Shown here in pieces: positions 29,389 to 64,000 of a stretch of DNA of 64,000 nucleotides. Location: the NCBI GenBank assembly GCA_965178125.1, contig OZ237737.1:1054001-1118000 (forward strand), in the 5' to 3' direction. Each line of letters opens with the position of its first letter. Position 1 is the stretch's first letter. The notes beneath the pieces were generated by a model. The model was not told the DNA's origin. It ran no database searches and saw nothing but the letters and a program-made list of their open reading frames with translations. This stretch comes from Bilabrum cf. latius (Eukaryota). The translations under genes were made by a program, and so were the position numbers.

Positions 29389-30991
<1,603 letters not shown>

Positions 30992-35862: not shown

Positions 35863-36384
35863 ATGGATCAAACCCTAAACCCCACACAACTAACTCATCT
35901 TGCCAATCGTTTCAGCATACCCAATTTCAATTGGATACAATACAAAGATATCTTACATCATGGTTTACCCCAAGGCGATTTCGTACTTTTTTACCCTCAA
36001 GAACAATATGGTAACACCATCAGCGGTCACTACACCTGTGTTATTCAAACTCCCAATGTTATCTATTTCTACGATCCTTATGGCGAACTTCCTGATACAC
36101 ACAAAGTAAACCTTTCTGGTGCACAAAAACAAATCCTCTACGATCGCAAACTCAACCACCAAAACCTCACCAAGTTACTCTGGCAAACTGGTAAGTTAGT
36201 TGATTATTCCCACTACCCACACCAACAATACTCCGATGATATCGCAACATGTGGTCGACACTGCGTCTTACGCCTTGCCAATCGCTAGATGAGCAATGAT
36301 CAATACCACAAGTACCTAAAATACCTTAGCAAACTAAACAATCAACCCAATCTAGATAAACTAGTGTTTCAAATAACTCAGTAA
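35863..36384 (+). CDS. Virophage maturation cysteine protease (adenain-like), element A
   Basis: SGHYTCV, YFYDPYG, HQQYSDDIATCGRHC (His-Asp-Gln-Cys); reads through TAG 36286-36288 to TAA. Confidence 0.9.
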
Positions 36385-36407
36385 TTATTATCACTGGTAG
36401 TAATTAT

Positions 36408-37319
36408 ATGGCAAAAAGTCACGTAATTGATTACCAATACGTAAACCTATAGTAGTTCAACCAAGGCAAAACCGATCTTGAAACCAATCTTGAACAAACA
36501 CGACAATCAACCTTCCTCAAACCCAACAAAGGATACCTGTTTGGCATTGTTAGATGGTTTATTAGCAACGGTGTTGCCTTACCCGTTTTCCAAGCACCAC
36601 TCAATCCACTTTCAATCAGTGTTGAACCCAATTCTGGCACTGCCGAAATAATTGATCTTACCTTTTCCGAGGATCTGTACTACAACATGCAGGATCTCGT
36701 CGCCGAACTCAATGCCTCAATCAAAGTTGCATGTGATAATCTATCCATTGGTACAGGTGATCAACCATCAGTTAGTTTCGACGGTAAACTATTTTCCATC
36801 AACTCCAATACCGCCTTTCGTTCCGCCAATCGTCTTGGATTCAACCCCAGATTAACCCGAATGTTACACACTTTTCGTTTTGAATCAGGCAGCGGCAATC
36901 CATCCGATAGTTGGAACTGGCTACTACTAGAAAATGATCTCGAAACACAATTCACCGATTCACTCGAAAATATCGATCCTGTTGCTCGTATCCTTATCAA
37001 AGCACGGGGTTTACCCATTAATCAAGAATTAACACCTCTACCACTCAACTCACAAGGCAAAATCTCCGATAAAAGCGAAAGTATTGTTACCGATTTTAAA
37101 GTGGTTATGACCAACGGATCTCCTTATAGATCTTTCTTGTATAATGCTAGTAGCACTCCACGATGGACTCAAATGCTGGATGTATCTGGTAGTACTAAAA
37201 ACTTAACCTTTGAATTATACTGGTTAGATTATAGAGGTGTTGAAACAAGAATAAGTTTACCCAGCGAATCAGCCGCCGATATCAAGGGTTTGTTTAAGGA
37301 AATTAGCGAATTCACTTGA
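36408..37319 (+). CDS. Minor capsid (penton) protein, mavirus-like, 303 aa, element A
   Basis: Lies between protease and MCP. ETQFTDSLENIDPVARILIKARGLPINQELTP resembles mavirus penton as I recall it. Tandem TAG TAG at 36450-36455; TGA stop. Confidence 0.82.
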
Positions 37320-37344
37320 TTTTTTTTTCTACAACCTAGTTATA

Positions 37345-38117
37345 ATGAGTGAAATTAACTCTAATCTCCCTTTAGAAATTGGAATCAGCAAAAGCTACCA
37401 ATTTACTGCCCCCTCTCAACTTAAGTACCAAAGTCAAGCCGATGCACGTAATGCGGTTTATGAGGATCACCCATCAACCAAACCACTTTCAAACACTGGT
37501 TGGAGCTACCGTTGGCAGTTTGATCCTGCTGATGGATTGCTTGGTATCCCCGATATGGAATTCTAGAACCTTAGTTTCTTACTAACTCTCAATGGTGGTG
37601 GCAATCTTGTCCCCGATGACCTTAAAAACAACCTTGGTATCGCCACCTTCGGCGAATCATCAGTTGTTGAGAGAATCGATTTCAATCAAGCAGGACAAAA
37701 TATCCAAACCGAGCCATCCAAAATGCGATACATCTGGGCTGGTATGAACTCCATTGAAGTCAACTCCCTTATCACCAATGGTCCTGAACCTGATACCAGT
37801 TCAAAATATGTACCTCTGGCACAAAGCAATGTGCTTCGGGATGGTTTTAACTCCACCTCAAACACCAACACTCGCGGTTTAGGCTTACGTTACAATGCCA
37901 CTCTGGAGGCTGTAGATGCCGCCACCGTTAGATTTACTATTCCCAGTTTAATTTGCCGTCTACCCTCCGATGCTTTTGATTTCAAATCAGAGTACCCAAA
38001 ACCATGCAATAGCATGGATCAATGGAATCTTGAACTAAAACTTAATAACGTTGCCGCCAGCCTTGTTCGTTCTGGTCTTGACGACTTAAGAGTTGCATTA
38101 GAAGGAGGAACTGTAAA
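37345..38117 (+). pseudogene. Major capsid protein of element A, N-terminal ~257 aa, cut by insertion of element B
   Basis: Follows penton and is alignable by eye with the N-terminus of the MCP at 55753. One TAG at 37564-37566; the frame runs into the second palindrome at 38118. Confidence 0.75.
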
Positions 38118-38182
38118 TCTCACACACCACATACCAGGGGGACCTCCAATTTGGAGGTCCCCCTGGTATGTGGTGTGTGAGA
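38118..38182. repeat. 65-bp palindrome (32-bp perfect arms, 1-nt centre) at the left end of element B
   Basis: TCTCACACACCACATACCAGGGGGACCTCCAA-T-TTGGAGGTCCCCCTGGTATGTGGTGTGTGAGA, followed by GTAGGGTA. Confidence 0.97.
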
Positions 38183-38790
38183 GTAGGGTATTTTTTATGT
38201 ACATTTTTCTTTTGTTATAAGTAATTCTTTCCATAAAACGGGTAGAGGGTGGAAATTTAAGTTGCTGAAAAATCATTTTTTTGCAGGTGAAATTTTCAAC
38301 TGCCAAAAATTACGCACTGAGTTACACTGCTACGTTTCACATCTCGGGTTCTATTCCTCTTGCAGAGGAGAGAAATTTGGGGGTCTCCATAGTATTCTGC
38401 GGGGTCCCCCAGGCGGGGGATGTTCAAAAATTCATTTAATATTGCATTGAGAAATCACAGGGATTCTCATTTTCATTTTTTTTTTATTTGGTTGTTGTTC
38501 AGAAAAATCTCATGTTGTTCAAAATACTCGGTTTCATGAAATTTTCAGAACTCAGCCAACTAAAAAAAAAATGGATTTTGAATTTTTTTCTAAGAATGAA
38601 AAAATCTCATTTCCTTTATTTTGAACAACATCCCTACCTTTTCCGACAACAAAACCTTTATTTTGAACAACATTTTGAACAACATAATTATTCGTAACCA
38701 ATTATTTTGAACAACATTTTGAACAACAACGAATAAAATTATAGATAACTAATAATAACCATTTTTTCCCCCTAAATCTGAATAAATAAC

Positions 38791-40952: not shown

Positions 40953-41224
40953 TTAACTTATATTATTTAGTTGGCTTTAAATCATTTTTTGGAGGAAAGA
41001 TATTACGAGGTCCTCCTCATATACAAAGAAAATCATTTTTATTTGCAGATCCTCGAGCCCGATCAATTTTCCCCCCAAACCACGATCAAACGATTTCATG
41101 ATTTCTAAGATTTATTCCGTATTAAGTGCATTTAAATTAATACAGAGATACTCGCTAAAATCACGCTCTCTGTGTACTCATACAGGGAAATATTTGGGTT
41201 TTAAAATGCGTGAAAATTTAATGG

Positions 41225-42319
41225 TTAATGATTTAATCCTTTCTGTTTGAATCCCATCTGCTTTATGCATAGGTAAAGATCCTCTGATATTACTTTACCC
41301 GCTTTTCTCGCCCGAAACAGTGCAGATTTGTATGGGGATTCCTTGATTGCAAGTGCAAACTCCTTCTAGGATTCAATATGCTTTACCTTGGCGTATTCTT
41401 GATTGATTGCATCCTTGAATTTTATATATATCTTTTCTTTTTCATCTAAAAATGGTTTGAGGTGAGGCAATACTGCCAGAACCTCATTAATCTCTCGATT
41501 AATTACAATTCGCCATAAAGCCTCATGATCCATTTGTTTCCCTGATCGCAAGTACGAGGATTTTACCCATGATTGGGTTTTAAACTTCTTGCGTTTGTAC
41601 TTTTTGCGGTTAGCATCCCACTGTGCAACCACAAACCCCTCTTGATCTGGTTTCAAGGTTTGCAAGAGTACCATCACATCGTATCGCGATTTACACATGT
41701 ATCTTTCCCCCTAAAACGCACCTTTTACCTCTGTTCCATCATTATTGCATATTCCTAGCACGGTGGCAAACTACTTAGGATAATACTCCACTATCCGGTT
41801 GAACGGAGTACATAATTCGTAGATGTATGTTTGCCCTGCACTGGGTTTGAAGATTGCTGGATCGATTTTCTTTTCGGAAGCATCAAACAATTGCCTCCAG
41901 CTGTTATCGTAAATCTAACTTACATTACCCTCGGCAAAACTTCCTCTAGTATTGATCATCAGTTGATCTTTGTGGGTATACGCTAAAATCAAACTCCCAT
42001 CGTACTTAAGCTGCACCTCAAACTCCTCATCCCAATCAATATCATCGATCCCATCCAAATAATCTGGTTTCTCGAAATCATTGAAAAAACGATCAAACGA
42101 TTTTGCTAATACACTATACTATTTGGGTGTACCTGATATCACTAATCCTCTGCAATAATGGCTGATCCAATTTCTTGGAGTGCCCAATTCTTTCTCGTTG
42201 TAGTTGAGAATATACACCTATTCTTCCTGATTTTCCTTTAGTTTTAATTGGTGTTGCTCCGCAAATTCCTAGATATCCTTGCAACTGTTTAATAAACTTA
42301 TCATTTCATCCAATCTCAT
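41225..42319 (-). CDS. T4 Rnl1-type RNA ligase (364 aa)
   Basis: With TAG read-through: CRGLVI, KSFDRFFN, motif I KYDGSLI, INTRGSF, YELCTPFNRIV, EGFVV, KFK; TAA stop. Confidence 0.88.
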
Positions 42320-42486
42320 TTATATATATATATATTATGGCATCATTTTTATATCTATGGAAAATGAAAAATATTATTCGATTTTAAAATGAAATCAATT
42401 AAAGAAATATCTCAATATACTTTGTGCGATGAATCTTAAAAGCGTTTCCTCCTTGTCATTCGAAATTTGAATTAGTTTTTATCGTA

Positions 42487-42560
42487 CACTGTACTTAATG
42501 GTTAAACATTCCCTTCAGATTGAGCGAATGTTTCGGGTTCGATTCCTGGCAAGTACAGTG
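42487..42560 (+). ncRNA. Atypical tRNA-like element
   Basis: 10-bp closing stem CACTGTACTT/AAGTACAGTG, AATGGTT D-loop-like sequence without a D stem, 8-bp central stem, T-arm CGGG-TTCGATT-CCTG. Confidence 0.5.
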
Positions 42561-42677
42561 AAATTCTCAAATGAACAATTGCACGATACCAAGGTAGTTG
42601 TGTAGTTTGGGATACCTCGGGTAGACTGTTAATTATATGTTATGTATCGTAGCATGTGTTGATGGAGCTATTGGGGT

Positions 42678-42748
42678 GGGATTATGTTGTAATGGTAACA
42701 TTTATGCCTTGGGCGCATAAGATTTGGGTTCGATTCCCAATAATCCCC
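42678..42748 (+). tRNA. tRNA-Pro(TGG)
   Basis: Acceptor GGGATTA/TAATCCC; anticodon arm TATGC-CTTGGGC-GCATA; T arm TTGGG-TTCGATT-CCCAA. Confidence 0.88.
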
Positions 42749-42750
42749 TC

Positions 42751-42832
42751 GAATCTGTAGTTTAAACGCTCTTTTGTGGAAGAGAGATGCAGGTTTAAAT
42801 CCCGCCAGATCCCGCCAGATCCTGTCAGATTC
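42751..42832 (+). pseudogene. Degenerate tRNA-His(GTG)-like sequence with tandemly repeated 3' end
   Basis: GAATCTG...CAGAT(C/T)C stem; TTGTGGA loop in a CTCT/AGAG stem; D loop missing; ATCCCGCCAG-like unit three times. Confidence 0.5.
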
Positions 42833-42900
42833 TATGTTTATTATATTCACTACTGTTAAAGAAAGTAACCACAATGCTTTTGATAGCAGTAAAAGCTTAA

Positions 42901-42970
42901 CACGATATGGTGTAGTGATAGCATTCTCGCATCTAGTGGAGAGGCGTTGGTTTGATTCCAGCTATCGTGT
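42901..42970 (+). tRNA. tRNA-like gene with CTA at the anticodon position (imperfect)
   Basis: Acceptor CACGATA/TATCGTG; D arm GTGT-AGTGATA-GCAT; loop AT-CTA-GT (42931-42937) in a TCTC(G)C/GGAGA stem with one bulge; T arm GTTGG-TTTGATT-CCAGC. Confidence 0.6.
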
Positions 42971-42993
42971 TAAATGTGGGTAAAGTGAACATA

Positions 42994-43064
42994 TGGATTA
43001 TGTTGTAACGGTAGCATACTAGCCTCATAAGCTAGAGATTCAGGTTCGATTCCTGATAATCCAC
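42994..43064 (+). tRNA. tRNA-Met(CAT)
   Basis: Acceptor TGGATTA/TAATCCA; anticodon arm CTAGC-CTCATAA-GCTAG; T arm TCAGG-TTCGATT-CCTGA. Confidence 0.9.
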
Positions 43065-43178
43065 ATCCAAAGAAAACTAACAGCAACCACATTCCACGAC
43101 TTTTAATCTCGGTTCAATGTTTTCTGCAAAAACATCATTTGTTTCTGGGTTTCTTATTGTAAGAAACTCAAACTCAAA

Positions 43179-43775
43179 TTAACTAGCATTTTGTGTATTT
43201 CTTCTCACGAACACTGGTTTAATTTTACCTTTAACACCATTTTTGTACCATATTTGTGTTCCATAAGAATTAATAACTGCTGGACCATTTTCTCTGTGAA
43301 GTTTGCCATTTATGAACCATTTTTTAGATACATTACCTTGATGATTTATAGTTTCTGCTGGTAGATCACCGTCTCTGTGACGTTTACCATTTTTGTACCA
43401 TGTTTTAGTTGTACGATGCAGTAGTATCCATTTTTCAATAACTGCTGGACCATTTTCTCTGTGAAGTTTGCCATACTTATGCCACATCGTTGTGTCACGC
43501 CATATCGTGTTATTCCACCTAATTGATGGCAAATCATCAATTGAATGTAACTTCCCCCTTAATATAAATATATAATTTGAACCCCAATGCAATCTTACAG
43601 ATTGGCTATCAGTTCTTAGAATTGGTTGAGTTGCTGAATTAACTTGTCTACAAACTGGACACTTGGTTGTATCCAAAGAATTATGGCACTCATTACAAAA
43701 CGTGCCATCTTTACAACATCCATTATGAACATATTTCCAATCATTTATATCCTATAAACAAATACAACATTGCAT
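43179..43775 (-). CDS. RING-like zinc finger fused to MORN-like (WYKNGKLHRENGPA) repeats, 198 aa
   Basis: MQCCICL*DI...HNGCC...FCNECH...KCPVCR upstream of the listed ORF; repeated KLHRENGPAVI; TAA stop. Confidence 0.78.
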
Positions 43776-43802
43776 TTTAATTAATGTTTGTATTTTTTTT
43801 AA

Positions 43803-44657
43803 TCAAATCCATTCATCTCTTTCATCTCTGGTAAAACACCAATCTACCACTCTATCAGGATGCCATGCTCGTGCCACTAATTCCTATTTAAGCTTTTTAA
43901 TGTGTTGTTGAGTTACATGCATACGTGAAAAATAATACCACATTAATGATCCATAATATATACAAGATGGTGGATACTTTTCACTCCATGAATGAAAATA
44001 TTGGAGCGAATCGCACCCTTCAAACATCCTTGATGGTCTATAAATTATCAACTTATGACAATCACACTCATCATTAGTCAAATAAGCTTCAACCACAAAT
44101 TCTTCACAAATATCTTCATCAGCAACAGGATTATGATCAACAACAACCTACACAGTATCATATTCCCCATTCTAATTATACTCATTATCCCTTTTCTCCA
44201 AGCACCTTGAGTACTTAATATCATTAATTTCTATATTATCCAGTTTCCATTTAGATAGATCCCGATTGAACTTTTTGCAACCACTGAACATTCCATTAAC
44301 ACATTTTACCTTGGATACATCCCAATAAGAAATATCATCGTTGAATTTCTTACAACCAATAAACATCTCATACATATTTGTTACGTTCGATGTATCCCAA
44401 GTTGGAAGGCATAATTCCTTTCTGGGATATCTTACTGAATCTCGATAGAAACCAAACAAGTTCCCCATATCCTTGATAAACGTAGTTACTGGAATCTCAT
44501 CGAAATGCCATTCTATTCGCTCTTTGAGTTCTTTCTTACTCAAAACAACCCAGTACTCTTTTCCATCTAATTCATGCCATTGATTATCAACGTAGTATTC
44601 CTTGGGTTGGGTTGCTTTTACTGTTACTCCATTTTCTAATAGTTTTAACGCTTCCAT
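43803..44657 (-). CDS. DUF285/BspA-like repeat protein (284 aa)
   Basis: WDTSNVTNMYEMF...FNDDISYWDVSKV...FNRDLSKW; reads through TAGs to ELVARAWHPDRVVDWC; TGA stop. Confidence 0.78.
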
Positions 44658-44682
44658 TTAATATAGTATAACATTTTATTCT

Positions 44683-45066
44683 TAAATCATTTTTTTAAAA
44701 AAATGATTATAATCAATTTGCTTGGTTTTAGATCAGAAGCCTGATCATTATTTCTATTTCGTAAAAACGCTCATTTTAATGTTCTTCGGATTTCGTACGG
44801 AAATTCCCTACGATGATCAAGTAAAAAAAATGAGCGTTTTTGAGGGTGGGTTTGATTTGTAGAAAACGTTATTTTCACCATTTTTGAAAATCAAAAATGT
44901 GTGGAAATCGTTTTTTTTTATATATATAGTTAAAAAATGTTCTTAATGTTCTACCCTATATAAAACAAATAAAATCCGTATCAAAGTAAGGAACATTAAA
45001 ATGTTCTCAAATGTTCAAAAATGTTCGATCCCTCTGAACTAAATCAAATATTATTTGATTTTTTAA
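44683..45066. repeat. ~380-bp non-coding direct repeat, copy 1
   Basis: Colinear with 47680-48064; shared blocks include GAAATTCCCTACGATGATCAAGTAAAAAAAATGAGCGTTTTTGAGGGTGGGTTTGATTTGTA and AATGTTCGATCCCTCTGAACTAAA. Confidence 0.92.
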
Positions 45067-47654
45067 ATCAAACAGATATCCTTTGGAAGCTTAGAATATA
45101 CTCTTTGAACTTTTACTTGAATCTTAGGTTTAACCATAACAGTAACAGGCTCTGATTGCTTGGATTCCTCCCTATCATCATATTTAGGTTCGGGTACTTC
45201 ATATTCATTTTCAGGGGCATCAGGAAAATACCAAACAGGATCTTTCAGCACCTACCTGATCAATTCAAGGTTGCCCTCGGGTGTAATTAAGAACCCCCTA
45301 GTTCGTGTTTTTCCAATCTAGCAAACCTTAAAGAAATCATTGCTCCATTTCTTGAATTGTTTACTAAACGATCTGGTAGATTTTATGCTATCCCGTTCAT
45401 TTACATGATTGTATAACAGCATTAATTCTTGAGCCGTAAATCGATCTTCTCCATCAGCTCTTTGATTTTCTAATTCAATCAGCGTTTTAATGAATGGATC
45501 ATAGCTCAAGGATGCCATATCACGCTTTAAATCAGTCATTGGAATATTTCTTAGGTTTACTGTTGAAAGATCACGGGATAACAGGTAATACCAAAAATGT
45601 TTGCCTGATTCAGGAGTTAAAAACTTAAACAGATTAGTGAAATAATCAACATCGTTACATCGTTTGTTATCTGCATCTAAACAAAAGTACCTGCGATCAC
45701 TACTGGAAATCTTGGCGACCCATTTCCAATACTGTGATGTGAGCATAAAATTATTAAAACAGCTCATTTGAATTGGATCTACTCCTTTGGTTTCAATCCG
45801 CTGCGTTTTGCGAGTAATCATATCCTTTAAGGAATCTGCATTTCGGTAAGCACCACCCTGTGATCCAATCTCATTGCAAACTGTAAAGATGGTTTTCATT
45901 CCGTCCATGTTAAACTATCTGGTTAAATCATTAATGTTACTCACATCACGAATGTACTAATTGCCAAACACATGTTCTTTCAAAAACTCCATGATTGAAT
46001 TCTTACCTGCACCCTCTCTGATTGAAACCAAAACAACAGCCACCAAGGATTTTTTCCATGGTGTTTGAGCAATCGATGCCATCCAATCAAGAATATACTT
46101 GTAACACATCTAATCACCACCACACCAAATATCGTGCAAGTGATCTAGAATCGGCTGGATTTTGGTTTGATCCATCTTGAAGTTATCAGGTGGTGTTACT
46201 GAATGCATGAATCCCTTAAACATGTTGAATTTGTTTTCTACCATGTGGTTAGGTGGCGGATTGATAGTGTATGGTACAAACGTAGTTTTCGTGTAGGTTT
46301 TGATAGAGGCTGATTTTAACCAGCATTCGGTAATCCAAGGTTGGTTTTTATTGCCATGCCGTAAGTTCTCAAAACTAACTAACAGATTTTGGCGATTGAT
46401 AGTTACAGCATCTCCTGATTCTGGAAAAACACGTACAAACATCGCAGGATTTTCTATCTTTACACAAAAGTTCTCGAAATACTACTATCGTAACTTGTTT
46501 AATTTACTGTAATCCATGATGCTATGTAGTTTTATCGGAACACGTTCTGTATCCATCGAATTATGAAAGAACGGATCAAAAGGATTGTTACTTTCAATAT
46601 GCTTAATTACCTGCTGTTCTTTTTCATCCAAGTAATCCTAAACCTCTTTGGGTACAGGTGCTTCTTGATCGGATTCTAAAATAGCATCCACTTGATAGTT
46701 TTCCATTCGTTTTGTTTCCAGTTTTACTCGGAAACCTGTCTTTTCATAGATGAACTGTTCGATAGCTGGAATCCATGTGTTTACCGTTTTGCTCTAAACA
46801 TCACGCAAAAACACGCCATCGTACTAATAATCAGCCACCTTGCACTTAAACTTACCATTCAGAATGAAAGCAATATGCTCGGTTATCTACCGTTCAATGT
46901 GCTGAAAGAAACTTGAAAGTTTGCCTACATCGGCTCTATCAGTATTTTCTTTACCGGGATTACAAGGTAACAACTCCCAATCAGAACCCATTATTTGTTT
47001 TACATGCTGCATGATTTCAGCAAACTCCCGTTTGGCTTTAACAAATAAATCGTAGTTTTGTTTGCATCTGTGAGTGAGCTCTTGAAGATCCTCGATTCCA
47101 ATTTGTTTTGCAGTACCCTAAATGCTACCATCGTATAAACAAGCAAATCCTAGTTTCTTGATGCTATCCTTGGGTAATTTGTGATCCTCTAAGAATTCGG
47201 CAAATATGCGCTTGCGTTCATTGTTTAGCCTCTTAATGGCAACTGAAGGTTTGTTAGTTAAAACCGGGTACAACTGTTCAGCAATAACAGGGTGGCAGTT
47301 ACAAACATCAAGATCAATGTAATTATCTCGGCATAAGAAATGCCTAATCGGTCGTGTAATATTTACAAACCCATCATCACTGTAAAACCGCCCGAATCCT
47401 CTAGTGCATGTAAAATCCACCTTTCGATTGATGGTTGCTTTTTTTGATCGCCCGATATGCCGTTTCAAGATATTCTGGGTTTTGGTAATTTCGGCTCGAA
47501 TATCTACCAGATCTGATCCTGCCATTAAAGAAAACAAAATACGGTTGAGATGCTTTTCCACCATTTTGGAGCGCTTTACATCCACTACAATTTTTGTTTG
47601 TACTGTTGATCCCACAGGTAGAGGTTTTACTAAATCGGTTATCGAAATTTGCAT
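45063..47654 (-). CDS. TVpol (PolA-related primase-polymerase) fused to superfamily 3 helicase, 863 aa
   Basis: Four listed ORFs in one frame. GFGRFYS, YIDLDVCNCHP, FQHIER, YDG; Walker A EGAGKNS, VCNEI, DRRYF; TAA stop. Confidence 0.85.
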
Positions 47655-54025: not shown

Positions 54026-55753
54026 TTACATTCCAAGTTTGCTTAAAAGTGCTTGAGTAGAAACGCTCTTACCAGCCACCCGATTTACGCCTTTACCCCT
54101 TTTTCCAGCACCCACTGCTTTGGCAACTTTACCCACAGCGGTATTATCACCAACATAATTCTTTACAATAGGTAGGTTACGGGCAACTTTAGAAACCTCT
54201 TTAAGCACTGGGGCTGCTTTCTTGATTCCGTTCCACAGTCGACCGAAGAAACCACGCCTTCCACCCACGATTGAGGCAGATACTCCATCATCTTTGTAAG
54301 TAACATTAGTAGCGGTTAGGCTCTTAACTGGATCGGCAAGTAACACACGGCTCTCCATCAAACCGTCTTTGAGGTAATTGGCTTCGGAGTTGGCTAGAAT
54401 CATCCATAAGCGGTAACTACCAGCTGCCACTGCAGCACCAGTGGGGTTCTGGATAGTAACAGTAGCCTAGATAGAGAATCTAGCATTCACACCACCTTGG
54501 GTTTCCTGAGGCAGAGGCAATTGGGATGGTTTTATTGCCAACATGCAACCGTTGCCGTAAATTCGGTTGGCACCAACTGAGAAATCCTAGATTAAACCAG
54601 CGAAATGCCCGAATCTGCCGTTATATCCGTTTTTGGTGCTCATTTGCCAGAGTTCATACTGGGAAATCAACCTGCCAATATCTTGTTCACCATTGATGGT
54701 TAGGTTGATGGCAGAAATGGGTAAAAACTAATCAGGCTAGTTGCTTCCAGCCACAGGATCGCGTTCCACGTAACACAGCAACATTTCTGGTGTGTATGCG
54801 AAATCATAAGACTACATCTGGTGCTCAATGCTGCCTGGCACACCGTTTGCAGCGGCTGGAATAGCCTGGTTAGGGCGTTCCTAACGCTTTTGGCGATGTA
54901 CTGAGTTTAGCACAATTCTGTTTGGTTGAGGAACTTCAAGCGCAGGTGTATCGATAGTGAAATCCAGAAACAGGGATGGGTTACCAACTTGGGTAAATGC
55001 TAAATCCTGTCCGCCGACAGTTGAGGCAGACCATATGCGCTATAATCCATTAGAACCAATCTCAAGTTTGAGATCGAACGGTTGCAGGTTCTTGTAAGGA
55101 TTAGGATAGGCATCCTTGAAAGGGAAAAACTTGTTCCATAGGCGCTCCTCCAGAATAATGAGGAATTCGTGTGAGTTGCCAGCAGCTGGACCAACATAGT
55201 ATACAGAGTAACGGTTGCCGAAACCACGGGATTCGTTCTAATCAATTGTATCTAATGAAACGCGGAGTGGATCACTGAGATAATCACGGCTATATGCAGT
55301 GTTTTTATCAGGAACAGGAGCAGGGCTCATTCGGTAACCAATCTCTGGATCGTGGTTATGAGCAAACTCTTTGCTTTCCTAGTAACTCTCACTCACCCAA
55401 GTAGAACCATTGTGATCCACAATGGTACGATCAAACATTCTAGCCAAGGGGAAAGGTTTAACACCAACTCTGCTCTTTAAATCTGCTAGAGCAAGGGCAG
55501 CAGCATTTGCCTTAGCCACTCGAACTCGTTGAATGTATCTTAAAGTAGGTTGATTGAAATCACCTTTTACTGGATTTATAGTCATATTCAAGGTTGCACC
55601 ATTTGCAACAGGATCAGTAAAGGTTAAGCGGTTGTAACCAATCTTGGTGTTACCTGCTTCTACCTGTTGTTTTACTTTGGAAGGATCGAGGAAGTTGTAC
55701 TTTGGATCAACTGCCACACTTACTGGTAAACTTTGTCTTAAGGTTTGAGACAT
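54026..55753 (-). CDS. Major capsid protein, element B (575 aa)
   Basis: Continuous frame over TAGs directly after penton; virophage MCP size; C-terminal IVGG followed by a basic amphipathic tail; TAA stop. Confidence 0.85.
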
Positions 55754-55784
55754 TTATGATTTAAACTGATAAAATAATTATTTC

Positions 55785-56696
55785 TTAATTTAGCTCACTC
55801 ACCTCCACAAATGCTAATTTTGCCGAAACAGAGGTTCGGGCACGAGGCTTCACATCGTACTTAACACCTTTACTATCCAACCAGTAAAACCTGAGTTGAA
55901 TGTTGTTGAACTGGTTTCCAGTTACTGTTGCCCATCGGTGGTTGCCACCAGCACTATAAGTAATTGATTGAAGGTGGCTGCCGTTACTTGGAAAGAAATT
56001 GAAATCGGTAATAATGTTTTCGACCCGAGTAGAAAACTAGCCTTCGGCTGATTCAACTGAATTTGGCAACAACTCGCTGATCATGGGTAACGTACCCTAT
56101 ATTTCAATTCGTTTCACGGGAACTATTGCTTCAAGAGTGGATTCAGGCTGTTGCACTACATCAACATCCAAGAAAAAATAGGGATTCTCCAATGTATCCT
56201 AAGGAATTCTGGGAAAGGTATGGAACATGGCAAACAAGTGCTCATTGAATCCTAAATCGTATCCTGTGGTTAAATCCCGAAAGTTGCTGGTGCTTTCGAT
56301 AAAAAATAGAATGCCATCATAAGTTAACTCAGGAAAATCCACGGGTGAAACTGGAGATGGGTGAGCAGCACAGGCGGTCGCTATTGCAAGATTTATGGCA
56401 GCTACCACTTCTGCCATATTGTAAACAAACTTGTTGCTACCAAAGTTAACATTGGCTGAACTTACAGTGCTTGAAGCCTGATCACGAATGTTAACAGTAT
56501 AAGTTAGCTTAGGATTAGGTTCAAATACTGGAAATACAGCTTGTTCGATATTCCATCGATCCACACTGAGTTTAAAGAGTTTCTCATCAGTCAAAATGTT
56601 GCCAGAGCGCTGTTCCTCTAACAAAGTACGATCTGCAGTGGTAGTTTCTTGGTTGAAGTATCTTAGATTTACATACTGGTAGGTTTTATTGCTCAT
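55785..56696 (-). CDS. Minor capsid (penton) protein, element B (303 aa)
   Basis: Clear homologue of 36408-37319 (YQYVNL..FNQ, YNM, GFN..L..M.HTF); TAA stop. Confidence 0.85.
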
Positions 56697-56724
56697 TTGA
56701 GATATAGTTTAAATGAGAAATAAA

Positions 56725-57267
56725 TCACATGGGTCTGAATTGTTCAAACAAGGTAACAAACACATCGGGCTTAACTTTGTGTTGCTTACACTTTTGTAAT
56801 AACCGTTTATTGTACTGTTCATGATTTAAATGCCGATTACTAAGCCGTAGCAAGCAGTGCCTACCACAGGTTGAGATTTGTGGATCATCGATTTGGTGAG
56901 GGAATGGTGAATAATCTATGGTTCGATGATCATTTATTAGTTTGCCTAAGATGCCTTTCTATCGATCTAGGTAGCCAAGGGCTTCTCGCTGTGGGCTGGT
57001 TTTAGTGATTGCATGGGGTAAAAATCCGTATGGATCATAATAGTGGATACGATTGGGATCGAGGCTTTGAATTACGGCACAGTAATGCCCAGATTCGTTT
57101 TTGCCTTGCCGTATCAAAGGGAAAAACAAAACGAAATCCTGATCCTTGCCAGTGGGTAATCCGTGCTATTCAATTTGATCGTTGGTAAAAACAGGCACAT
57201 TGGCTTTCAAGTGTTGCAACTGTTGTGGGCTGAGCCCCGATTTAATTTTATCAAGTAACTGATCCAT
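56725..57267 (-). CDS. Maturation cysteine protease, element B (180 aa), missed by the ORF track
   Basis: DFVLFFP, SGHYCAVIQ, YYDPYG, HQIDDPQISTCGRHCLLRL; two TAGs; TGA stop. Confidence 0.9.
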
Positions 57268-57804: not shown

Positions 57805-58827
57805 TCATATCAAACAAACCTGATGGGGCGATATCAAGCAATTGCGTTGCTGGTTTATGGCTACCCAATCGTTTCGGCTTAACAGGCTTTTCACCTTTTT
57901 TATCTCCTTAGCTTTAAATTTCAGATAGTTTTCCATTAGAAACTAATTCTAACGAGGTTTGTTGCGCTAGAAAATTACATAGATGTTAATTTCATTGTGT
58001 AGAGTGCGGGTATTCTAACCCCAAGATGGTAAGTGTGTAATTACAAAGATATCGGTTTCGGTACTTCTACCCTTGGTAAGAATATAATTGATCAAGAACA
58101 GGGCTTTGTTTTGCAGTTCACCGCCTTCCACATCATCAAATATCCATACAGAATTCTTGATCAGCTTCAAAAATCCTTCGGTTACCGAATAGTTGATCTT
58201 TTTCTTTGGCTTCAAGGATTCAACCGCAAGTTTCATTTCAATAACCTCCTCAGGATCTAGTTCGCTCTTATCCAGCATTTTGTAGCGCAGTTTAGCCTCT
58301 TGATATTTTCGTTCGGAACTATCGCCAATGATAAGATCATCGATATCGAGGGTATGAAACTTGGCTTCTTTGAATCGCTTTTCATCATCCTTGCCGTTGA
58401 TCACATACACCTTTTTATTAAATAGTTTCCTAATAATTTTGGCTTGTTCTAGCACCCAGGTAGTTTTACCTGAACCTGCTTTACCCATTATATGGTACGC
58501 AGTTCGGCAATCGCGTGCATCTCGATCGGGATACGGAATAATCGTTCCTTTTTTACTTTTATATTTTCCATGTAGGATCTTTCCTTCCCGCATTTCCTAT
58601 TTAAACTTTTTCTTTAGTTCTGGTAGTTGTCGCTGGTATCTGGTGGCACGAACACCGTATCTCAACCTTAGATCAGATTCACTGATATCGGATTCATCAC
58701 CAGAATCATCATCAGAATCAGAATCATTTTCAGGTGGTTTGCGGTTGTAGTATATAACATCTGGATCATTGCGATTCATATCAAGTGCAACAGGAACACC
58801 ATCTTTTGTATGTCGAGTGGAAATCAT
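57805..58827 (-). CDS. FtsK/HerA (A32-like) genome packaging ATPase (340 aa)
   Basis: Walker A GKAGSGKT, Walker B IFDD, ILTKGRS...ITH, LHNE; joined over TAGs; TGA stop. Confidence 0.9.
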
Positions 58828-58865
58828 TACTATAGGTATATAAAATATTTTCAATGTTATTATAT

Positions 58866-60152
58866 ATGGCAAAAAGCGATGAAAAGTTGCGAAAGATTCT
58901 TAAAGAGCTAACAATTGAGAGATACTCCGGTTTAGCAGAACAAAGAAGAGAAAACATGGAGGAAAACAACCGCCGTGTGAGGCAGGAAAACCGAGCACGT
59001 AAAGAGCAACAAGATCAAGAGAGATTGAGAAAGGCAGGTGTGGTGAGTGAACTTGAACGTACCAGAAATGATTAGGCAACTGGGCGGGTTAAAGCATTAT
59101 TGGGCTAGTTATAGAGGGCAAGAACGGCAACTAGTAGGCAGAGAGTAATAGATGCCTTAGAAGTGAGTTTGTATAGTGGTGATATTATTTTGCCCAAGAG
59201 CCTTAAAGAGATAGAAGCCTAGTTTAAGCGTTTAAATGTTAATAGAGGAAGCAATTAGGCAATACGAAGGTTACTAATTGAAAATGGAGTTCGAGATGCA
59301 TTGTAGTATGCAATCAAGCGTAATCCCAATCGTGTGGATCGTGATCCAATGAGAGAAATACCAGAAGAGGGTTCAAATCCTGTGGGAGAGCGTCCACGAA
59401 GAGTAGATATCGAACCTTGGATTATTGATTCAGTACCTGAACCGGCACCTGCACCTGCACGGGCACGGGCACGAAGACGAGGAGCACGAATACCAGTGCC
59501 ATAGTTGGTACCAGCAGCTGATCTCGCAGAATAGATGGAACAAGGTTTTGCAGGATCTCCTGCTCGTGCTCCTCGTGCTCGGGCTGCTGATGTTGCTCCT
59601 GGCGGACCAGGACCTGGCGGTGATTCCGATAATGATCCTACACCAGCACCAGCACCAGCACCAGCACCAGCACCAGCACCAGCACCAGCACCAGCACGAC
59701 GCAGATCAAGTAGGCAAACCACAGAACCAGATAGGTTAACCGCAAACACAATGGGTAACTTAGGTTCAGCGGAGGGTACATAGGGTATGGGTGCACCTAA
59801 ATCGGGTAAATGGAATCGTACATTACAATCCTAGGCACTGCGTTTAGCTGGATAGATGAGGCGCTAGAATCCTAAATTGAGCCGTGGAGAAGCAATGAAA
59901 CAGGCATTTAAGGCTGTGAAACAATCGAAAATGAAAGGCAAAGGAATCATTGAGGATGCTGGGCGATTTTTGTTTGATGGATTGGTTGGAGCTCCATTGC
60001 GCAAGGTAATCGGTGATAAAGGATTGAAAGCAATTGCACCCAAATCACATCGGAGAATCAATAAATCTGAACGCCGTGCCGGGTTACAAGGCAAAGAAGC
60101 CCAAGAAAAATAGTTTCAATAGGATCGTATTAGGCGTTTGCGTGGATACTAA
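58866..60152 (+). CDS. Arg-rich protein with (PA)n tracts and basic C-terminus, possible core protein (428 aa)
   Basis: Listed ORFs 58854, 59535 and 59877 are one frame across many TAGs; TAA stop. Confidence 0.7.
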
Positions 60153-61382: not shown

Positions 61383-62594
61383 ATGGATACAAAGCATCAG
61401 CAACGTGAATTATAGAAGTTGAAAGAGTTATATTATGGTTCAAAAGCCTTTGTAGGTGAGGAAAAATTATACAAGTTTGCGATTCAGAACGGCATTGATT
61501 TGCCACGGCGTGTGGTTAGAGATTGGTTGCAAAAGCAAGAAACATGGCAAATGATGAAACCAACCAAGAAAGTTCGTTCAATTAAACGCTAGGTAATTAG
61601 TGCTCCTTTTAAAAAGTTGCAAATAGATTTGGTGGATTTGAGTTCATCGGAAACCCCACGAGGCATGAAATGGTTGCTAACAGCCATCGATGGTTTTAGT
61701 AAGAAAGCTTACGCAATTGCCATGCCCGATAAGCGAGAGCAAACCGTATTGAATGCTTTGAAACAAATCTTAGAGTAGATGCCCCAACCACCCAGTGTGT
61801 TGTAGAGTGATAATGGCAGTGAGTTCGTAAATCGAGCATTTAAAGCATTTTTAAAAAGCAAGAAAATTAAATAGATCTTGAGTACAGCGGGTAAACCGCA
61901 AACCAATGGATTGGTTGAGAGATTTAATGGAACAATTAAGAGAATGATTAAGGCGGATCGCTTGGATTCGGGTGTGAATAACTGGGATAATAGTTTGGCA
62001 GCCTATTTGAGGGTATACAATCAAACGCCACAAAATACAACCAAGCAATCGCCAGATAATTTAGAGAGGGAGTATCTGGAGAACAAACAGAGTTCTGGAG
62101 TGGATGCAGTTAGAAAAAGAATAAAGAAAAATGCAGGTGAACGTGCCAATGAGTAGCGGTTCAAAGTGGGCGATCAAGTAAGGGTTCGATTGCGATGGGG
62201 ATCTAATGAGAAAAGGGGTGAAAACTGGTCTAAGGATGTGTATACTATAAGATAGGTGTTAAAACCGCGTATGCCGTGGAGTCCGTGGTCCTATTAGGTA
62301 GAAGGATTGCCAACCAGATATTTTACAGAGGAATTGCAGAAGGTGGATGAGGTTGAAAATCCAATTACTTTGCCAGATTAGTATATTATTTCGAGTATTG
62401 TGCGCCCTAGTGTGGTTAATGGGGAGCGTGGATTTGTGGTTCGATGGGTTGGATACAAGGTTCCAGAGTGGAACAGCTATGAAAACATGATCGAAGATGT
62501 GCCCAAACTGGTTTAGGCATTTGAAAAGAAGCACAAAGTAGAATGGAAAAAGAATCCACGTACAAACAAATGGACGTTTACGTGGAAAAAGTAA
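61383..62594 (+). CDS. Retroviral-type (rve, DDE) integrase with C-terminal chromodomain-like region (403 aa)
   Basis: LQIDLVD, TAIDGFSK, L*SDNGSEF, PQTNGLVERFNGTIK, FKVGDQVRV, FVVRWVGY; TAA stop. Confidence 0.93.
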
Positions 62595-62704: not shown

Positions 62705-64000
62705 TTAATTCTGGCAGTATACCATACAGGCTGCTGGAAAGTAATCATAGGTAGCCTGATCTGGCTTTACTTTGGTGTAAAACACGGTTTTGAAGGCTTG
62801 TTTTAAGGTTTCGATGATGCGTAGGAAACGGGGGATGCTCCTATCTACATCAAAACTATATTCTAACACCAGTTTTTGGATGCCATGGTGTTGGTAAGTT
62901 GCTGGTTTAAGTGTTTCGAGGATCTCGATTTCAGCACCCTCGATATCCATTTTAATGCAGTTGCAATCAGCCCGTTCCAAAGCCTCAAAAATATTTTCTA
63001 CAGGGATATCAACAGTTGTACGCCCTCTTACGGGATGCAAGGTATGCCTGTATTTGTTGTAATCTCCTTTGCACAGGTAGAGTTTTTGAGTTCCAGTGGG
63101 TTTTGTAGAAACCCCTGATTCAACAATTTTCCATCCACCCCTAGGTTTAGGAAAGTTGAGTTCCAGGTTTTTTTGTAGTATTTCAAGGTTATCCCGTTCT
63201 GGTTCATAGCAGGTTACAGAGCACCCCCGCGATAAGGCAAGTAAGGCGAATGTGCCGATATTGGCACCAAGATCTAGCCATCGTTCCTTTGGATCAGATC
63301 CCACTTCGAACTAAACTTTTGGTTTATCGTAAGAGTTCCTGGTAAGCACCTCACCAATTACAGTTTGATCTGTGGTTTTGGGGCGAACCCAGAGTTTAAG
63401 ATCGAGTTTTCGTTTGGGTAAAACTACATCAATTAATTCTTGTGAGGCGGCTTTACTAGAAGGTTTGGATTGGGTACATTTTTGCATGTTTTCTCGGTAG
63501 TAGTAAACCATTGATAATCTGCACCAATCTGATCCATCTGGCACTATTTCTGTATTACAGTGCAACTGGTGAGGATCTATTAAGATAAAATCGCCGTGGC
63601 GAACATCAACACAAACGCCGAACTTAGGAAAACCCAGGTATCCGCCCTTGTAAGAATTCTTGCCATCCTCGGCAACTACTACAGCACTGTATCCATTGTG
63701 ATAATCACCTGAATCCTTGTGGCAAGCGGTTCGCCAGTTGTAATTTACGGTGATGGTAGAAAATGCAGTATCGTTGATTTGGTAATCGGGAGTTTTTTTA
63801 GCCATGCCGTGCTGTTCGTGATGGCGTTCTGGTTCGAACTCGCTGTATGCCTTATCAACCTAATTAATTAATGGTTTTAAGTTGTTCCATTTGGCTTGGT
63901 ATTTGCTGGTATAGCTGGTAGTTCTGCAGGGTACGAGTTTCTTGGCTAAGATTTCTCGTTTATCTCTGATTCGGGGTTTATCGTAGTAGCCAACAATCAT
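62705..64000 (-). CDS. TET/JBP-family 2OG-Fe(II) dioxygenase fused to FkbM-family methyltransferase (probably 5'-partial)
   Basis: GYYDKP..CRTTSY..FSTITVNYNWRTACHKDSGD..HQLHCNTEI..RLSMVYY, in frame across TAG 63311-63313 with LDLGANIG..YEP..IKMDIEGAE; TAA stop. Confidence 0.82.

Follow-up and report, generated by a model that had tools for sequence, protein, structure and literature searches.

Virophages are known to carry tRNA genes; a metagenomic survey reported them in 18 virophage sequences of high quality and in 12 others (Paez-Espino et al. 2019, PMC6905037). According to the available text of that survey, these genes included Met(CAT), Gln(TTG and CTG), Leu(TAA), Pro(TGG), Cys, Phe and one ochre (TTA) tRNA; Gln tRNAs were frequent, and to the authors the ochre tRNA hinted that the host had reassigned a stop codon (PMC6905037). 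Anticodon stems of only 4 bp, as described in the available portion of another article, can function and can promote stop-codon reading (PMC13092985). Here we describe a 70-nt tRNA-like gene with a putative CUA anticodon in a virophage-like element of Bilabrum cf. latius. It lies in a stretch of 64,000 nucleotides (contig OZ237737.1, positions 1,054,001 to 1,118,000), which we call the window and to whose first letter all positions refer. We propose that this candidate belongs to a tRNA array of the virophage itself, with CUA as an anticodon that would be cognate to the codon UAG.

The candidate is tRNA-derived and exceeds a chance resemblance, given its match to the tRNA model and its place between two canonical tRNA genes. 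In a search with permissive filters over positions 42400–43400, it matched the Rfam tRNA family RF00005 along the full length of the model (1–71) with 37.2 bits and an E-value of 5.3e-6, the curated gathering cut-off of this family being 29 bits. All seven pairs of the acceptor stem are Watson-Crick pairs, and TTAA flanks lengthen the stem to an 11-nt inverted repeat that is 100% complementary (42897–42907 and 42963–42973), as a preliminary description of the locus had stated. The D stem has four of four pairs (two of them G-U) with a 7-nt D loop, the T stem has five of five (one G-U), and two bases (UG) lie between the acceptor and D stems. The conserved tRNA core is represented by U8, A14, G18, A21, U33, G53, U54, U55, A58 and C61. 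Relative to its paralogues in the array, the genes for tRNA-Pro(UGG) and tRNA-Met(CAU), five of the seven acceptor pairs have changed on both sides with pairing maintained. The TTAA flanks were also considered as the target-site duplication of an insertion, an idea we rejected because a 70-nt unit is too small and TTAA easily arises in AT-rich DNA.

The candidate departs from the usual tRNA in several places, each noted in the preliminary description and each present in the sequence: GA replaces the usual GG in the D loop, the T loop reads UUUGA, position 32 is A, and the anticodon stem is bulged. Positions 15-48 and 19-56 of tRNAs form tertiary pairs, the second of which is usually G19-C56. 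The departures in the D and T loops of the candidate are the partners 19 and 56 and thus compensate each other, the elbow pair being A-U, a double change that preserves pairing. The 15-48 pair is G-C in the candidate versus A-U in the Pro and Met genes. A natural instance of the 19-56 double change occurs in a phage tRNA-Trp(CCA) called by ARAGORN on a 170-kb contig (L001, 1495–1568, plus strand), which has the GA D loop and the UUUGA T loop as in the candidate.

Anticodon registers were ranked by homology with the neighbouring tRNAs and by the minimum free energy (MFE) fold. Both the 7-nt loop and the 5' strand of the stem, CUCGC, align with their counterparts in the Pro and Met genes. The 3' strand of the stem is one base short, with four instead of the expected five. 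In the resulting stem, a bulged G separates three contiguous pairs from a single closing pair. If this G (42929, position 30) is read as bulged, CTA stands in the middle of the 7-nt loop, where the preliminary description had placed it, and the MFE fold retains the same bulged-G hairpin with its CUA loop. From the homology and the fold we infer a CUA register at positions 34–36. Two other registers can be drawn but were rejected as weaker than the homology register: Arg(UCU), whose stem would have one Watson-Crick pair, three G-U pairs and one mismatch, and a quadruplet 'ctag' in an 8-nt loop, which requires a variable loop of 2 nt and a mismatch of G with A. The 'ctag' register is the one that ARAGORN labels 'Pyl|Leu' with its -mt option.

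The codon that CUA would read is a sense codon in both the host and the virus. The G+C content of the window is 55–68% from position 1 to ~33 kb and 33–44% from ~36 kb to its end; the GC-rich part is eukaryotic host DNA. It holds a frame of 7244 codons with a HECT ubiquitin-ligase domain at its C-terminus (1.4e-57), and there is not one TAA or TGA in this frame before its terminal TGA stop. With 28 in-frame TAG codons and with no intron-like break along its 21.7 kb, this uninterrupted frame indicates clearly that the host nucleus reads TAG as sense. In the AT-rich part, the longest frame has 287 codons under the standard code and 871 codons when TAG is read through. We counted 100 in-frame TAG codons among the 6412 codons of 19 viral open reading frames (ORFs), or 15.6 per 1000. 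The host HECT frame has 3.5 per 1000, so that the virus uses TAG ~4.5-fold more. All 19 viral ORFs end at TAA (14) or TGA (5), and the viral genes are indeed TAG-rich, as the preliminary description had claimed.

The gene is also virus-encoded, as had been claimed. The AT-rich part is an integrated virophage-like element that adjoins the host DNA, and the candidate lies inside it together with genes for a capsid protein of the Sputnik V20 type, an rve integrase and a D5-type helicase. The preliminary description had gone on to liken the candidate to the suppressor tRNAs of recoded phages. This likeness fails on the host side, because a host that already reads TAG as sense would receive from this RNA a cognate supply tRNA and not a suppressor. 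Its proposal of a viral UAG decoder is partly supported, in that the gene is viral, the viral genes are TAG-rich and CUA stands in the register that matches the paralogues.

To identify the amino acid specified by TAG, we built profiles from homologues of three viral genes and summed log-odds over 26 TAG sites. The helicase profile used 149 of the 150 listed matches, the window's own copy having been removed, and 9 of the 12 TAG sites fell in match states; the scores were Gln 3.64, Arg 2.67, Lys 2.48 and Glu 2.04. The integrase profile used 13 of 15 aligned homologues, without the two closest, which may themselves carry TAG read as Gln, and its ten sites gave Gln 3.38, Arg 2.98 and Lys 2.75. 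With the RNA ligase, for which the best 22 of 102 matches were used, seven sites gave Gln 3.26, Asn 2.52 and Glu 1.95. Gln thus ranked first in each of the three genes separately, and the summed scores were Gln 10.27, Arg 6.67, Lys 6.43 and Glu 4.6, with Phe, Trp, Ile, Tyr and Leu all below -20. Control runs of the profiles on ordinary codons returned the correct residue each time. In a copy of the helicase from the database (P0005, 99% identical), Gln stands at all 12 TAG sites, which means that its predictor also applied a code in which TAG is Gln. From these profiles, UAG most probably specifies Gln in this host-virus pair. Arg and Lys are less likely, and Leu, Tyr and Trp are excluded by the profile log-odds.

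Under the explanation that we favour, the candidate would be an accessory codon-supply tRNA, made or captured to boost the UAG reader for the TAG-rich viral genes. The neighbouring tRNA-Pro(UGG) may offer a parallel, as it matches the CCA-rich usage of the virus: CCA occurs 19.0 times per 1000 codons in the virus versus 6.4 in the host gene, a 3-fold difference. That codons enriched 4.5-fold and 3-fold over the host both have a tRNA in the array fits a viral codon-supply role, although not tightly. Glutamine as the amino acid carried and supply as the function are what we infer for the candidate. Codon usage also bears on the tRNA-Met(CAU) of the array. ATG is used almost equally by virus and host (20.1 vs 18.6 per 1000), even though this tRNA is the array member retained in all copies, and ATA is 15-fold commoner in the virus (11.7 vs 0.8 per 1000); the true decoding role of the Met(CAU) tRNA may merit attention.

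The array consists of six tRNA-like units, all on the plus strand, in an 860-bp interval that separates the RNA ligase gene from a RING-finger ORF, both on the minus strand; on either side it is flanked by AT-rich viral ORFs that contain TAG. Only two of the six units are canonical. Run with default settings on the whole window, ARAGORN and Rfam found the same two tRNAs only, Pro(UGG) and Met(CAU). These two genes are 74% identical over 68 nt, and their anticodon stems differ by compensated changes, which indicates that the array grows through duplication and anticodon change; it also decays. The leftmost unit, U0, folds better than every one of 200 shuffled sequences (z = -3.44), was not among the Rfam matches at E ≤ 10, and starts where a copy-specific segment of 506 bp, described below, has its left edge. 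The next unit, U1, has a fold z-score of -0.88 and is called by ARAGORN only at the 80% threshold. A degenerate unit downstream of the Pro gene is also drawn by ARAGORN with -ps90 and with -mt, and its 3' acceptor end is present in three tandem 10-nt copies (42799–42828, plus strand), which may be a trace of slippage or recombination at a tRNA end. The MFE fold of the candidate itself has z = -0.96, with 35 of 200 shuffled sequences folding equally well; the canonical Pro tRNA also reaches only z = -0.91, so this test has little power here.

Another explanation is a tRNA-shaped element, RNA or DNA, whose task is not decoding, such as a processing or termination hairpin of viral transcripts, a target of recombination, or a decoy or substrate linked to the RNA ligase. 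The outer stems of three units measure 10–11 bp and run beyond the tRNA ends, and U0 combines its low z-score with a structure that is not that of a canonical tRNA. In the candidate, however, the extra 4 bp are the palindrome TTAA, which could easily be present by chance in AT-rich DNA. The gene for an Rnl1-type ligase adjoins the array, but position alone links the ligase to these RNAs. We regard a non-decoding element as very improbable.

In order to compare copies of the locus, we aligned contigs of four public runs with positions 41200–45000. Runs X1 and X2 come from one sample of organism A, possibly the source of the window itself, and runs X5 and X6 from organism B in a separate study. 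A 574-nt contig in both X1 and X2 spans 42450–43023 with no differences and no gaps. The base-for-base agreement of these contigs shows that the stem defect is real, and an assembly indel as the cause of the missing stem base was thereby ruled out. The depth of this contig is 44.4 in X1 and 27.5 in X2, compared with ~170–290 for its flanks. The 506-bp segment that holds the candidate and four other array units is in the same depth class as the RNA ligase and DUF285 genes, and we take it as single copy. A further form of the locus, with a depth of 82.6 in X1, skips 41419–44726 altogether. tRNA-Met is the sole array member shared with the higher-depth sister copies and with the relative in organism B. 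The preliminary description had suggested comparing other copies for an intact CUA version; the sister copies examined offer none, as the entire 506-bp segment is missing from them.

Searches for relatives of the array were made in viral, metagenome and phage collections. An 18-nt word from the candidate's D arm occurred at two loci in viral contigs, both by chance (the unrelated phage tRNA-Trp(CCA) mentioned above and a sequence that is not a tRNA). The 5' half shared by the Pro and Met genes had no match in viral contigs and none in metagenome contigs, and the two halves of the candidate's acceptor, with any sequence allowed between them, had none in metagenome contigs. A blastn search with the 70-nt candidate against 50,697 phage records returned nothing at E ≤ 1. 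Related virophage loci were sought by three of the element's proteins: the capsid protein gave 6 candidate stretches and no locus (0 of 8000 candidates scored in the word search), the RNA ligase gave none, and of 253 stretches from a two-sequence helicase alignment none was confirmed.

Several observations weigh against the explanation that we favour. The candidate was called neither by ARAGORN nor by Rfam when each was run with default settings on the whole window, and its 37.2 bits compare with ~60 bits for its canonical neighbours. Its anticodon arm is one nucleotide short (16 nt, the usual length being 17), the Infernal alignment omits 10 nt and has no more than the first 3 bp of the anticodon stem paired, and ARAGORN at a lowered threshold offers the two other registers, UCU and the 4-base 'ctag'. 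A32, G37 and U38 are not the residues expected of Gln tRNAs. TTA, AAA, ATA and CAA show a greater excess in virus over host than either TAG or CCA, and the array contains no tRNA for any of these four codons. The host must already possess a UAG reader of its own. Decay is common at this locus, where no fewer than three of the other array units are plainly degenerate. An X1 contig with a depth of 186.6 joins 42487 directly to 42994 without the 506-bp segment, and in X5 and X6 there are 77 other letters between 42487 and 42995; missing from the sister copies, the segment and the candidate in it are dispensable and not conserved. No homologue of the candidate or of the array was found in the collections searched.

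Much of this could be accounted for if the candidate were a dead paralogue, that is, a decayed duplicate of another isotype whose CUA arose by drift after function had been lost. The one-base deletion in the anticodon stem, the low model score and the silence of the default finders, the single-copy state and the absence from sister copies would all follow, in a birth-and-death array with at least three degenerate units, and many anticodons are one step away from CUA. For a triplet free of constraint, on the other hand, the probability of being the single anticodon that matches the reassigned stop is, by our arithmetic, ~1 in 64 per unit and ~1 in 11 over six units. The other arms and the tertiary pairs are intact and carry compensating changes, which argues for recent constraint over long decay, and U33 and a purine at position 37 are retained. 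We therefore consider a dead paralogue unlikely. The 1 in 64 chance per unit together with the intact, covarying core makes it probable that the CUA is meaningful and reflects a UAG-reading tRNA, at present or in the recent past.

Whether the copy in the window still serves this purpose is a separate matter. A base has gone from the 3' strand of the anticodon stem in the present copy, leaving four pairs and a bulged G, and the copy lies in a dispensable single-copy stretch of an array whose units are mostly decayed. That this copy is still charged and used is possible but doubtful, because a stem base is lost, the unit is dispensable in sister copies, and decay affects its neighbours in the array. 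A stricter version of the favoured explanation, whose odds are contained within it, holds that the tRNA is fully active, with a bulged four-pair stem that is tolerated or even useful, and that it is charged with Gln and used in virophage replication. The intact core with covarying tertiary pairs would suit such a tRNA, as would a CUA that matches a sense codon enriched 4.5-fold in the virus and canonical neighbours that show the array to be in use, now or recently. Anticodon stems of 4 bp are functional and have been linked to stop-codon reading, but in the available text the published examples have neither an internal bulge nor a missing base (PMC13092985). Given in addition that sister copies dispense with the candidate, we hold full activity to be no better than a minority possibility. 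The complete proposition, an active virophage tRNA with a four-pair bulged stem that reads UAG and feeds TAG-rich genes in a host where UAG means Gln, would be more doubtful still.

The features of the window are collected in Table 1. Pfam was scanned with 22 ORFs of the AT-rich part, TAG being translated as X. Nine of the 22 had matches, two of them under the curated cut-offs (RING finger and ATPase_2), and 13 had none. In addition to the matches in the table, one viral ORF matched GIY-YIG (8.8e-9) and one matched DUF285 (1.3e-21).

Table 1. Features of the window, with positions counted from its first letter.
Feature	Position	Strand	Remarks
Host frame with HECT domain	6587–28321	+	7244 codons; 28 in-frame TAG
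GAPDH gene, host part	29921–30988		6.7e-66
Second protease-like, penton-like and capsid N-terminal set, truncated	35863–38220	+	opposite orientation to 54029–57267 (-)
Virophage-like element, AT-rich	39585–64000		extends past window end; from Pfam matches and G+C content
RNA ligase, T4 Rnl1 type (PF09511)	41228–42319	-	4.3e-14; 7 in-frame TAG
U0, tRNA-like unit	42487–42560	+	acceptor-type stem of 10 bp; D arm absent; long central hairpin; GGTTCGATTCC in T arm
Copy-specific segment, 506 bp	42488–42993		holds U0, U1, tRNA-Pro, degenerate unit and candidate
U1, decayed unit	42583–42652	+	outer stem repeats 5' half of candidate's acceptor; no T arm; weak
tRNA-Pro(UGG), canonical	42678–42748	+	ARAGORN; Rfam 59.6 bits
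Degenerate tRNA-like unit	42751–42813	+	no D loop; loop contains GUG; Rfam 29.5 bits, E 6.7e-4
Candidate tRNA-like gene, 70 nt	42901–42970	+	Rfam RF00005
CTA, positions 34–36 of candidate (putative anticodon)	42933–42935	+	register of Pro/Met alignment; loop AUCUAGU with U33
tRNA-Met(CAU), canonical	42994–43064	+	ARAGORN; Rfam 60.8 bits
D5-type helicase, domain DUF5906	45066–47654	-	2.6e-11
Major capsid protein, Sputnik V20 type, C-terminal domain MCP_V20_C	54029–55753	-	1.3e-12
Penton-like ORF	55788–56696	-	
Protease-like ORF	56728–57267	-	
ATPase-like ORF	57808–58827	-	
ORF with highest TAG density	58854–60149	+	14 TAG in 432 codons; middle Pro/Ala/Arg-rich and locally GC-rich
rve integrase	61383–62591	+	1.9e-18
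Tet/JBP-type 2OG-Fe oxygenase fused to FkbM-type methyltransferase	62708–64000	-	continues past window end; 2.6e-25 / 8.3e-8

The RNA ligase gene, which has 102 homologues, borders the tRNA array on its left. Ligases of the Rnl1 family repair broken anticodon loops of tRNAs in phage T4. The ligase and the array may together form an accessory module for tRNA supply and tRNA repair. At the other end of the array, directly past the stop of the RING-finger ORF (minus strand), lies a hairpin at 43137–43179 with 20-nt arms that are 80% complementary and a 3-nt loop. Transcript ends of a hairpin type occur in giant viruses and their virophages, and this hairpin resembles them.

The fusion of a Tet/JBP-type oxygenase and an FkbM-type methyltransferase is a candidate DNA-base-modification enzyme of the virophage. 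It is uncertain whether the ORF with the highest TAG density is coding, because shorter frames on the other strand overlap it. The second, truncated set of structural genes to the left of the element is only 43% (protease-like), 35% (penton-like) and 23% (capsid N-terminal) identical to the main set, which indicates that two different virophage-like elements lie side by side. One of them is possibly inserted into the other.

Viruses of hosts with an altered code must live with that code, and the supply of tRNA for a new sense codon is almost unstudied in eukaryotes. Here, host DNA, an integrated virophage and a virus-borne tRNA-like gene with a putative CUA anticodon lie in one stretch, which makes the supply question directly testable. 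If the tRNA were active, it would give firmer ground to the earlier hint from an ochre tRNA and add an unusual form of anticodon stem. If the complete proposal were true, this would be the first eukaryotic virus, with its host attached, shown to supply a tRNA for a reassigned stop codon, and the bulged stem would be a new architecture among the short-stem tRNAs tied to stop-codon reading. If the tRNA were inactive, the locus would still document rapid birth and decay of tRNA genes within a virophage family. The literature that we searched contained no CUA tRNA in a virophage and no virophage in a host with reassigned TAG.

Among cellular tRNAs, a tRNA-Gln(CUA) exists in eukaryotes that read UAG as Gln, with the same anticodon and amino acid as those proposed for the candidate. 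The pyrrolysine tRNA (tRNA-Pyl) has one base between the acceptor and D stems, a small D loop, a 6-bp anticodon stem and a 3-nt variable loop. The candidate resembles it in its putative CUA anticodon and in lacking both the D-loop GG and the usual T-loop motif. Identity with tRNA-Pyl was nevertheless rejected, as the candidate has a two-base spacer, a 7-nt D loop and no 6-bp anticodon stem, and TAG behaves as Gln; no Pyl genes were seen in the window.

As in the phages with recoded TAG (code 15), the virus carries a putative tRNA(CUA) and many in-frame TAG codons that would be read as Gln (PMC9523058, PMC10879173). In those phages, as the available texts describe them, TAG is a stop codon of the host, and a switch of the code is brought about by the tRNA late in infection, whereas here the host reads TAG and the virus is eukaryotic (PMC9523058, PMC10879173). 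A code-switching suppressor of the phage type was rejected for this locus, since host genes in the window carry in-frame TAG. The tRNA-Trp of the Blastocrithidia type likewise has four stem pairs in a setting of stop-codon reassignment (PMC13092985). According to the available text, its stem is unpaired at the top or bottom with all nucleotides kept, and its CCA anticodon reads a near-cognate codon, whereas the candidate's anticodon would be fully cognate (PMC13092985). With its internal bulged G and the base missing from the 3' strand, the candidate does not belong to this type of 4-bp stem.

The closest comparison is with the metagenomic virophage tRNAs. Here too the virophage bears an integrase, and two of its array members have the same Met(CAT) and Pro(TGG) anticodons (PMC6905037). 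Unlike the virophages in the available text of that survey, the element described here carries a tRNA-like gene with a putative amber CTA anticodon, the anticodon stem of this gene is defective, and the host DNA is attached to the element (PMC6905037), so that TAG reassignment is visible in both host and virus. Virophage-encoded tRNAs, including one that reads ochre, are thus already published, and the gene described here is their probable amber counterpart.

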